The translations under genes and the position numbers were made by a program. Positions 25,201-28,200 of a DNA stretch of 64,000 nt are shown one piece after another. Every line of letters begins with the position of its first letter. The stretch's first letter is position 1. Source of the stretch: Malacoraja senta. Taxonomy: Eukaryota. Under the pieces are notes generated by a model, which searched no databases, was not told where the DNA came from, and saw only the letters and a list, made by a program, of their open reading frames with translations. Where the stretch lies: NCBI GenBank assembly GCA_038087875.1, contig CM075991.1, positions 11,100,001 through 11,164,000 on the forward strand. The letters run 5' to 3'.

Positions 25201-28200
25201 CAGATTTTATCCCCTGAAGGATATTAATGAATCAGATGAATTTTTATAGCAATCCACTATTTTACTGGCCATTTTTTACTCATGATTAGTTTGCTTTTAA
25301 AATGTTAAAATAATTACAGAACTTAAATTGTCGTAATAGGATCAGGCCTCCTATTTACCAGTTTAACAATTTAACTACTGCATTACCACCTACTGGAGAA
25401 ACGTGAGGGCCTGGAAGACTATGTGAAAATAAGTGAAGGTTTTATAAATTGAGGACAGGTAGCCATTGTACGAGAGTAAGCATAATGGTGGGGAACTAGA
25501 TGGTGTGAGTTAAGAAAGTATAGGACAAGAAAGTTTGCCGAAAGTCCGTTAGGATTACGTTACATTGATCCTTCTGTTTCTTCATCAGAAAGCACCAGAT
25601 TTCTCCATTGTGTTGTTACACATCGTAGCGCATCAGCCAACAGCAACTGATCCAACTCCATCTGAATGGATGCAGATTGCAGAGGTCATGAAGGTGAGGA
25701 GTACAAAATCGTATAATAATAGTGAAGTGTATCCTGCAACATTGCAATGTAGCTGCTTCCTGCTCTGAAGAGTGCTACTGCTGAGAAATGTTCACCTCTC
25801 ACCTTGCCTCTTGCATTTAAACTTCTAAACCATTAGCCTCGGGCCATAACCCTAATGCACATCTCCCATGACGTTGTTTATGATATGTTGCAAGAGTATG
25901 AAGGGATTTTATTGATGCCTCCAGAATTAATTGATACCTCCAGAATTAATTAATGCCTCCAGAAAATGTACATTGCTTCACTATTCTGGACTGTAATCAG
26001 TAATCGTACATATCTACAGTGGTCGATGAATCATCATGAATAAGTTTCAGAAATTCACTTTAAACACCATCCACAATTGTTAACACTACAACAACAGTTT
26101 GCATAACAGTTTACACAAATATTCTCTCTCTCTCTCTCCTTTTCCCTGCGTGTGTGTGTGTGTGTAGTTTATTGTCACATGTACCAAGGTACACTGAAAA
26201 GCTTCTGTTGTGTGCTAAACAGTTAGCGGAAAGACTCTACATGATTACAATCGAGACACCCCCAGTCTTTCAATACATGATAAAAGGAATAACGTTCAGT
26301 GAATGATAATGTCCAGTAAAGTTCGATCTCTAAAATGTTTGATTTCTTCTGGTCCTGTGTCCAATTCTCAGGAAAATGACTTTGCAATTTAATTAGAAGC
26401 TCATATAGGTTATATAGCTCTTTGAGCCAGCTCTGCCATTCATTGAGGTCACGGATGATCAATTTCCTACCACCTGCCATTTAGTTTAGTTTTAGTTTAG
26501 AGATACAGTGCGGAAACAGGCCCTTCGGCCACCGAGTCCGCACCAACCAGCGATCCCCACACACTAACACTATCCTACACACACTAGGGACAATTTACAT
26601 TTTATGCCAAGCCAATTAACCTACAAACCTGTACGTCTTTGGAGTGTGGGAGGAAACCAAAGATCTCGGAGAAAACCCACGCAGATCACAGGGAAAACCT
26701 ACAAACGCCCATAGTCAGGATCGAACCCGGGTCTCTGGCTCTGTAAGGCAGTAGCTCTACTGCTGCGCCACTGTGCCGGGATAGATTTCCTCGATCCCTT
26801 TCTTGTTCCGACACCCGTTGATCTCAGACTTGAATATGTTTAAGAAGGAACTGCAGATGCTGGAAAATCGAAGGTAGACAAAAATGCTGGAGAAACTCAG
26901 CGGGTGAGGCAGCATCTATGGAGCGAAGGAAATAGGCAACGTTTCGGGTCGAGACGCTTCTTCAGACTGAAGACGGGTCTCAACCCGAAATGTTGCCTAT
27001 TTTCTTCGCTCCATAGATGCTGCCTCACCCGCTGAGTTTCTCCAGCATTTTTGTCTACCTCAGACTTGAATGTACTCAGCTGTTGAGCATCAACATATAA
27101 CAGATCCAAAGATATTTTAAGGACATTGACATTTCTCCTCATCTCAATCCAAATTGGTCAATTGTTTAGATTATTTACTGAAGATAAATTTGCTCTAAGG
27201 TATGACTAATATTTTCCCTTTTATTTTCAGAGAAAGCGCCTGTTTCCCTTCTTCTACTCAGCTGCTCAAGGTTTAGCTACAGGGGATGTGCGGAGGGATG
27301 CCTGGCCTGTACGACATTTTGTCACTGAGCGTTTTGAGCTGTTTTGTGCCCAGTCATTTTCCACGAATTTCACCTTGTACAGTATGTCCCTTACACTCCT
27401 AGTACTCGATATCTAGAGCTGAGCTTTTAGATGACATTCTTCTCCAAGCAGAAATGCTTTTAGACTAAAAACATTCAGATCTCTATCAGATTATCATTTC
27501 AGATTAATAATGGTGATTAACTCTCATGGGCCTGATTAGATGTTTCCCAGGCTGCTATGGAAAAATAGGAAGGAGATTGTTGGGATTTTGATAAGAGATT
27601 TTAAAATCTTTGATCCTGCCTTTATTAGAGTGAAGAATAGAGTGGCCTGGAGATCATGCTGTAACTTTATTAAACTTTGGTTAGACCACAATTAGAATAT
27701 TGTGTGCCACTTTAGGTATAATATGTACAGATGTGTTTGGTTTTACTGGAGTAGAGGAGGCTAATAGAGGAATACACATCTAGAGAGAAATTAAGAGAAT
27801 GCATTGTGAAAAAAACTTTTCAGATCTGAACAGCTGAACAACTGATCAGCTGAATGACCTCAAGTTTGGCCGTGTGGAAGATGAAAAGTCAGCCGGTAGG
27901 GATTTAAAGTTAGCTGAATTCTATAATAAATGGTTAATTCAGTCGCATTTGGTTTAAAAAAAAAAATCTATCCTGTCTTTTTGAGTGTAAGATAGGCACA
28001 AAAAGCTGGGGTAACTCAGCGGGACAGGCAGCATCTCTGGAGAGGAGGAATGGGTGACGTTTCAGGTTGAGACCCTTCCTCAGTTGAGTGTATGATGGTC
28101 ATCAAGTGATGCTGAAACCAGTAAGTGAGCATGTTGTAAAATGTATGATTGTTGTAATTGTTGTATAATGTTGTAAATTGTTGTAAAATGTGTGAACAGA

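Follow-up and report, generated by a model that had tools for sequence, protein, structure and literature searches.

What is an aspartate aminotransferase (AAT) homologue kept for once the catalytic residues of its active site have been lost? The question is raised by a gene in a 64,000-nucleotide stretch of the genome of the skate Malacoraja senta (GenBank assembly GCA_038087875.1, contig CM075991.1, positions 11,100,001 to 11,164,000, forward strand), which is referred to here as the window. The gene, GOT1L1, comprises nine exons on the + strand (window positions 19174-31640), and exon 6 holds the site that drew attention to it, where the lysine that binds pyridoxal 5′-phosphate (PLP) in active enzymes is replaced by threonine. 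The function of GOT1L1 has been in dispute ever since the protein was put forward as the mammalian aspartate racemase, and structural work on sperm published in 2024-2025 still treats it as an enzyme. As judged from its sequence, skate GOT1L1 is very probably non-catalytic, and it is likely that the main role of the protein is non-catalytic across the whole GOT1L1 family.

The active site of skate GOT1L1

In AAT, neither Schiff base formation nor proton transfer takes place without Lys258, and Asp222, Tyr225 and Asn194 supply the electron sink or tune the phenolate. With the initiator Met counted as residue 1 and the protein aligned to skate GOT1, the product of the window gene had Q194, Y222, A225, T258, G266, Q292 and Q386 where GOT1 has N, D, Y, K, R, R and R. 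Exon 6 encodes FFYSAAQG, and codon 258 reads ACG (Thr). Thr is found at the position of the Schiff-base lysine of active class I aspartate aminotransferases; Tyr, Ala and Gln are found at those of the PLP ring ligands Asp222, Tyr225 and Asn194; Gly is found at that of the phosphate ligand Arg266; and Gln is found at those of both substrate carboxylate ligands, Arg386 and Arg292. These changes had been listed in the preliminary description of the locus, and the alignment to GOT1 bore out every one. The N-terminal substrate-lid residues of GOT1 were also missing, and Tyr70, Gly108, Trp140, His143 and Ser255 were retained. A PLP-dependent aspartate racemase, as once proposed for Got1l1, would be expected to have the lysine and a replacement of Trp140; the skate protein has Thr258 and retains Trp140. 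Thr258 was common to four skates (the window organism, Leucoraja, Amblyraja and Rhinoraja), and position 292 varied among them, being Gln in the window and Rhinoraja and Arg in Leucoraja and Amblyraja. The K258A variant of AAT is described as catalytically dead in the accessible part of PMC12018205.

The ACG codon (27363-27365) was supported by contigs from sequencing runs. A genomic contig from run X1, which is possibly the source of the assembly itself, matched the window with 0 other letters over 27039-28018, and in spliced contigs of relatives (runs X18 and X22) the exon-6 differences, 2 and 3 in number, all lay outside this codon. Among the differences listed for runs X2, X3, X4, X20 and X21, none fell at codon 258.

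Reading frame, selection and fold

The features of the gene, in window coordinates, are as follows.

18847..19183, + strand: CpG-rich 50-bp tandem repeat, 6.7 copies, 97% matches
19174..19291, + strand: GOT1L1 exon 1, coding, 118 nt
20793..20974, + strand: GOT1L1 exon 2, 182 nt, matching proteins P0001/P0341
22448..22571, + strand: GOT1L1 exon 3, 124 nt, Trp140 retained
24261..24370, + strand: GOT1L1 exon 4, 110 nt
25589..25693, + strand: GOT1L1 exon 5, 105 nt, Asn194>Gln
27231..27381, + strand: GOT1L1 exon 6, 151 nt, Asp222>Tyr, Tyr225>Ala, Lys258>Thr
28442..28607, + strand: GOT1L1 exon 7, 166 nt, Arg266>Gly, Arg292>Gln
29244..29386, + strand: GOT1L1 exon 8, 143 nt, long helix with Met331, Glu335, Lys336, Glu339 and Arg342
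31481..31640, + strand: GOT1L1 exon 9 through the stop codon, Arg386>Gln, assembly one base short at about 31503-31506

All eight introns had GT-AG borders. An intact gene with a CpG promoter had been described at first; the nine exons and their splice sites stood, but a frameshift in the assembled exon 9 had been overlooked. There, one base is absent from an A-run at about 31503-31506, which produces a premature stop. The extra base was present in 8/8 runs, seven of which insert A at 31503 and one of which inserts a base at 31507. Because every run restores the frame, the frameshift is an assembly error, and one that would lead automated annotation to call GOT1L1 truncated. The CpG island is likewise real (GC 0.75, CpG observed/expected ratio 0.96, about 18750-19250), but consists mostly of the 50-bp tandem repeat. 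This repeat multiplies the start-codon region: its unit carries two ATGs, and ATGs occur upstream of exon 1 in all three frames, the in-frame ATG at 19153 being the start used by the Leucoraja and Amblyraja annotations. It may be a repeat that varies in length, or a feature of the assembly.

Selection was assessed by comparing substitutions at conserved columns, defined as those at least 80% conserved in non-batoid GOT1L1, with substitutions at other columns. The window and Rhinoraja proteins, both with Thr258, differed at 1/110 conserved and 43/242 other columns (p=8.6e-7), and the four skates together at 2/110 conserved and 47/242 variable columns. The window protein differed from that of Leucoraja at 1/127 versus 17/284 columns (p=0.017) and from that of Amblyraja at 0/127 versus 12/284 (p=0.021); between Leucoraja and Amblyraja, avoidance of conserved columns was not significant (p=0.29). 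From the placement of these substitutions, purifying selection is still acting on skate GOT1L1 after the loss of Lys258.

Spliced contigs from relatives of the window organism indicated that the gene is expressed in them; among the runs listed for the window organism itself, none was marked as RNA. A single contig joined exons 6-9 exactly at the model boundaries in two of four runs (X18 and X20); of the other two, one joined exons 7-9 and one yielded exon-only pieces. These runs come from four studies of relatives, with tissues given as codes and RNA status guessed by the tool. An AlphaFold2 model of the Amblyraja orthologue (97% identical) had a predicted local distance difference test score (pLDDT) of 93.7 and a template modelling (TM) score of 0.92 to GOT1 structures, with a root-mean-square deviation of about 2 Å. 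The two-domain structure of fold type I was present in this model, so that the AAT fold is predicted to be retained in skate GOT1L1. Catalytic residues are lost, and the frame, purifying selection and (as predicted) the fold are kept, which is the pattern of a pseudoenzyme; the residue tallies given below, the selection test and the restored frame all support that reading, which had been proposed at the outset.

Loss of catalytic residues across GOT1L1

Residues were tallied in 51 vertebrate GOT1L1 and 17 GOT1 proteins, hagfish and two outgroups being excluded. Whereas K258, D222, Y225, N194, R266 and R386 were all present in 17/17 GOT1 proteins, retention in GOT1L1 was 24/51 for K258, 13/51 for D222, 0/51 for Y225, 16/51 for N194 (12 gaps), 31/51 for R266 and 3/51 for R386 (3 gaps). 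Position 258 in GOT1L1 was Lys in 24, Arg in 9, Ala in 9, Thr in 5, His in 2, Glu in 1 and Leu in 1. Thr occurred in skates and the electric ray; Arg in the sevengill shark, lungfish, salamanders, alligator and lemurs; His or Arg in ray-finned fish; Glu in the coelacanth; and Ala or Leu in frogs. On the tree, this position changed 12 times in GOT1L1 and not at all in the 17 GOT1 proteins. When the changes are read on the accepted vertebrate tree, they suggest about nine separate losses of Lys258. Loss of the lysine had been presented as an oddity of one lineage against lysine-keeping mammals. The loss in skates is real, but that framing was too narrow, with Lys258 missing in 27/51 orthologues.

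All 15 chondrichthyan GOT1L1 proteins in the alignment lacked Asp222 and Tyr225, and Asn194 was absent from all 14 in which the column was filled, those that keep Lys258 included. Since these lysine keepers lack the other three residues, the active site was crippled before skates lost the lysine. In mouse GOT1L1 (PDB 9IJJ chain), Lys258, Asp222 and Arg386 are present, and Trp140, Tyr225, Arg266 and Arg292 are gone. The mammalian pattern first given, for human GOT1L1, was retention of Lys258 and Asp222 with loss of all three arginines. The mouse protein agrees in keeping Lys258 and Asp222 and in lacking Arg266 and Arg292, but it keeps Arg386, and the lemur protein has Arg258.

That the lysine has been lost in many lineages while selection continues argues that GOT1L1 is kept for something other than catalysis.

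A GOT1L1-specific helix face

With nine lineages weighted equally, 17 of 419 alignment columns combined a conservation of at least 80% in GOT1L1 with a residue unlike that of GOT1. Five of the 17 fell within residues 331-342 (Met331, Glu335, Lys336, Glu339 and Arg342), a clustering that was equalled by 30 of 5000 random placements. In the AlphaFold2 model the five residues sit on the long helix, on the face opposite the shared core: on a 100-degree helical wheel, the mean direction was 11 degrees for the specific residues and 210 degrees for the shared core. Four of the five positions vary in GOT1, which suggests that they are exposed. Mouse GOT1L1 carries all five residues, and Arg342 was found in 50/50 GOT1L1 rows with the column filled. 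In a larger set that includes isoforms and near-copies, Arg342 was present in 96/102 degenerate and 1/111 intact homologues; of the six degenerate homologues without it, one is a truncated record and the other five come from invertebrates or fungi. The simplest reading of this conservation is that the helix residues form a new binding surface.

The gene itself is known, and the loss in skates is one of many. What is new here is the family-wide pattern in which catalytic residues decay while the helix face stays fixed, a pattern in keeping with a structural role and one that opens the dispute over function to testing. Among the literature matches listed, which left most subscription papers outside the search, GOT1L1 was nowhere described as a pseudoenzyme, nor were its losses of the lysine pointed out.

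Orthology and conserved neighbourhood

The closest proteins were records named "aspartate aminotransferase, cytoplasmic-like" from skates, rays and sharks. The window protein was 96.9% identical to that of Amblyraja, 95.4% to Leucoraja, 86.9% to Rhinoraja, 69.1% to the sevengill shark, 50.6% to skate GOT1 and 39.2% to lemur GOT1L1. In a quick IQ-TREE search with 68 rows, a branch with a Shimodaira-Hasegawa-like approximate likelihood ratio test (SH-aLRT) value of 100 parted GOT1, hagfish and the two outgroups from the window protein and all "cytoplasmic 2" proteins. In a FastTree analysis of 86 rows, the GOT1L1 group, including lemur, had a support of 94 and contained one long-branch nemertean protein. 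Protein P0164 was counted as GOT1, not GOT1L1, after alignment. Because fast-evolving rows can attract each other in such trees, synteny matters for the identification.

On the same 14.3-Mb contig, an exon of a DOK-family phosphotyrosine-binding (PTB) domain, matching DOK2 best and narrowly over DOK1, lies about 215 kb downstream of GOT1L1, and a RAB11FIP1-like exon lies 1.2 Mb downstream. In human, RAB11FIP1 is a neighbour of GOT1L1. According to the available part of a preprint (bioRxiv 10.1101/104760), dok2, got1l1 and adrb3 belong to one conserved vertebrate block. ADRB3 was not seen among 63 long open reading frames (ORFs) scanned in the 200 kb on either side of GOT1L1. The trees and the DOK-family and RAB11FIP1-like genes thus uphold the initial identification as GOT1L1, the window protein having the clade, the conserved neighbourhood and the derived residues (Tyr225 lost, Gln386, and the helix face with Arg342) of that orthologous group. 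The "cytoplasmic-like" annotations of shark, ray, fish and frog proteins probably mislabel dead proteins.

Two other assignments were considered. The window gene is not GOT1 itself, skates and sharks carrying a separate intact GOT1. A skate GOT1 query against the genome of the window organism matched only GOT2 (L021-L022) and GOT1L1, with no true GOT1 locus, and searches for CutC, PLPBP-family, 4E-BP and nucleoplasmin genes found nothing on the GOT1L1 contig, or nothing anywhere. Because other expected single-copy genes were also missed in the assembly, the missing GOT1 locus is uninformative; a gap in the assembly or a limit of the search is the probable cause. A single clade of dead GOT proteins spanning the animals was not supported, since 14 of 15 other degenerate rows fell outside vertebrate GOT1L1 and the five that were checked lacked the helix residues.

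GOT1-like proteins with decayed sites were also seen in a cockroach, a gall wasp, weevils, a pollen beetle, Drosophila busckii, a nemertean, Caenorhabditis briggsae (got-1.3) and a fungus (P0199, P0208, P0213, P0215, P0229, P0236, P0238, P0278 and P0280), and these apparently arose independently. A turtle GOT1L1 record (P0117) is fused to a nucleoplasmin domain, probably through a merger of gene models with the adjoining npm2.

A possible function in the sperm central apparatus

Racemase activity was reportedly found for Got1l1 by Kim et al. in 2010. Mouse Got1l1 is testis-restricted, with expression in spermatocytes and sperm; D-aspartate does not change when the gene is knocked out, and racemase activity was absent (PMC4282708). 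The accessible part of PMC9283133 calls the function debated. By cryo-electron tomography (cryo-ET), a GOT1L1 dimer was modelled in the C1b projection of the central apparatus in mouse sperm (PDB 9IJJ; available parts of PMC12297659 and its preprint), and the passages available from PMC12642653 retain it there and name no new partner. A scaffold or a regulator in heterodimers with GOT1 had been suggested for the skate protein with no site named; the mouse cryo-ET points to C1b.

We lean towards GOT1L1 being an old vertebrate pseudoenzyme with an axonemal structural role in sperm. The protein would fold as an AAT-like dimer without cofactor, would be made in skate spermatids and would be incorporated in the axoneme there as one of the structural components of C1b, in line with the mouse model, with the charged face of the long helix serving as a docking surface. 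More tentatively, the fuller history may be that GOT1L1 is a duplicate of GOT1 that has been a pseudoenzyme for as long as there have been jawed vertebrates, having given up catalysis, gained a charged docking face (331-342, with an invariant Arg342) and become a structural dimer of C1b; that skates, frogs, salamanders, ray-finned fish and lemurs then shed the lysine independently; and that the dispute over racemase and transaminase activity concerns a vestigial site.

Several points weigh against this account. K258 is present in 24/51 orthologues, including most sharks, turtles and squamates, and mouse GOT1L1 keeps K258, D222 and R386; weak transaminase activity was detectable in HEK293T preparations of the mouse protein, and Got1l1 knockout mice are viable and fertile, motility not being reported in the accessible parts of that paper (PMC4282708). 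By the title of PDB entry 1AKA, K258H AAT retains residual catalytic activity. The pocket is partly conserved (Ser255 in 50/51; Tyr70 and Trp140 in skates), which fits retained ligand binding. In the available parts of PMC12297659 the authors describe their C1b assignment as uncertain, with GOT1 and GOT2 as the other candidates, though GOT1L1 fitted best, and the preprint takes the presence of GOT1L1 as ongoing D-aspartate synthesis. The constraint on GOT1L1 is clearly looser than that on GOT1, to judge from partial lists of codon differences (6 synonymous versus 7 non-synonymous in X18, 4 versus 9 in X20), and the identity between skate and sevengill shark is 69% for GOT1L1 and 82% for GOT1. 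Internal salt bridges are another possible role for the helix residues. Tarpon retains GOT1L1 with four of the five helix residues. Elopomorph sperm in general may lack the central pair, which a literature check did not confirm; together with the tarpon gene, this would argue against a role in the central apparatus only. The axoneme type of tarpon sperm was not found in the papers searched, and the accessible part of one preprint shows absence of the central pair in eel sperm only (bioRxiv 2023.07.16.549168).

An alternative is that GOT1L1 is a dead subunit that pairs with GOT1 in a heterodimer, where it would tune GOT1 activity or anchor it in spermatids, either in the cytosol or tethered to the axoneme. 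The shared fold and the many structural positions in common with GOT1 would allow such pairing, the C1b density cannot firmly tell GOT1L1 from GOT1 (available parts of PMC12297659), and the weak activity in HEK293T preparations could stem from GOT1 carried along in the purification, a source that an empty-vector control would leave open. We nevertheless regard this as unlikely: we found no data on a GOT1L1-GOT1 interaction, the GOT1L1-specific residues cluster on the long helix and not at the AAT dimer interface, and amino-acid levels in testis were unaltered in the knockout (PMC4282708).

More doubtful is a non-catalytic ligand binder or sensor, with a B6 vitamer, phosphate ester or amino acid still sitting in the remodelled pocket and closure of the domains relaying the signal. 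Besides the near-invariant Ser255, Gln386 occurs in 42/51 orthologues, Gly108 and His143 are present in skates along with Tyr70 and Trp140, and the segment of the long helix that carries the new residues is, in AAT, part of the mobile small domain. However, positions 222, 225, 194, 258 and 266 change freely, with 11-14 changes each, as would not be expected where a pocket holds a fixed ligand, and skates lack Arg266, the phosphate anchor.

There is only a slim chance that GOT1L1 is an enzyme with altered chemistry, an aspartate racemase or another, at least where Lys258 is kept. The reported racemase activity (as cited in PMC4282708 and in the accessible part of PMC9283133), the weak transaminase activity in mouse and the residues kept there speak for it. 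Against it stand the knockout and recombinant tests, which gave no racemase (PMC4282708), the absence of Lys258 from more than half of the orthologues, and the skate proteins, which lack the lysine and keep Trp140, a residue said to block racemization (PMC4282708). An early pseudogene (the other possibility raised at first) or a sequencing error at codon 258 is scarcely credible and was rejected, because, despite the assembled frameshift and an evolution faster than that of GOT1, reads restore the frame in 8/8 runs, Thr258 is common to four skates, relatives splice the transcript and substitutions avoid conserved columns.

The conserved helix face offers a defined target for mutation and a marker by which GOT1L1 could be told from GOT1 in the C1b density, and human GOT1L1 variants might be read as candidate sperm-motility alleles.

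Surrounding DNA

Directly upstream of GOT1L1, over about 85 kb (window positions 773-15546 and L062-L068), lies a tandem array of a rhodopsin-family G-protein-coupled receptor (GPCR) exon, with at least 14 near-full-length and several partial copies that are 85-96% identical. The first exon of a tachykinin receptor lies about 140 kb upstream (L057:562-1038), NK3R and NK1R scoring almost equally. Downstream of the gene, a Pfam scan of 150 of the 168 candidate ORFs in window positions 31700-64000 gave no convincing neighbour gene; two small CpG-rich stretches (41000-41500 and 59000-59500) have nearby ORFs without a Pfam match. A decayed orphan copy of exon 6 with its flanks occurs on another contig (L023:8497-8732, also L003); it is 241 bp long, has 84% identity and is broken by a frameshift and stops, and no other GOT1L1 exon was found in the 20 kb examined there.

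Comparison with known systems

The nearest known system is mammalian GOT1L1, as represented by the mouse chain in PDB 9IJJ. It belongs to the same clade as the skate protein, has likewise lost Tyr225 and Arg266, and shares the five helix residues; genes of the same vertebrate block accompany skate GOT1L1 on its contig. The two differ in that Lys258, Asp222 and Arg386 are present and Trp140 is absent in mouse, whereas skate shows the reverse pattern, and it is only for mouse that expression in testis and placement in C1b are known. GOT1 (EC 2.6.1.1) shares with skate GOT1L1 the predicted fold (TM 0.92), Pfam PF00155 and 51% identity (skate GOT1); skate GOT1L1, unlike GOT1, lacks K258, D222, Y225, N194, R266, R386 and the N-terminal lid residues. 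Against NCBIfam NF006719 (cut-off 377), skate GOT1 scores 432.5 and passes, while skate GOT1L1 scores 296 and falls below.

Dead paralogues of oligomeric metabolic enzymes that remain under selection and regulate an active partner are also known in plant PDX1.2 and the trypanosome deoxyhypusine synthase paralogue; in the parts of the sources available, a hetero-oligomer is shown for these, whereas pairing of GOT1L1 with GOT1 is hypothetical. Finally, dead enzyme homologues that help to build flagella or cilia have been described, in the accessible parts of reports on NSUN7 in the assembly of the sperm flagellum (PMC12804707) and on a ciliary-tip pseudoenzyme (bioRxiv 10.64898/2026.02.04.703868). 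Their folds are unrelated to that of GOT1L1 and their roles were shown experimentally, while that of GOT1L1 is inferred, but they share with it a fold that is kept and a catalysis that is lost.

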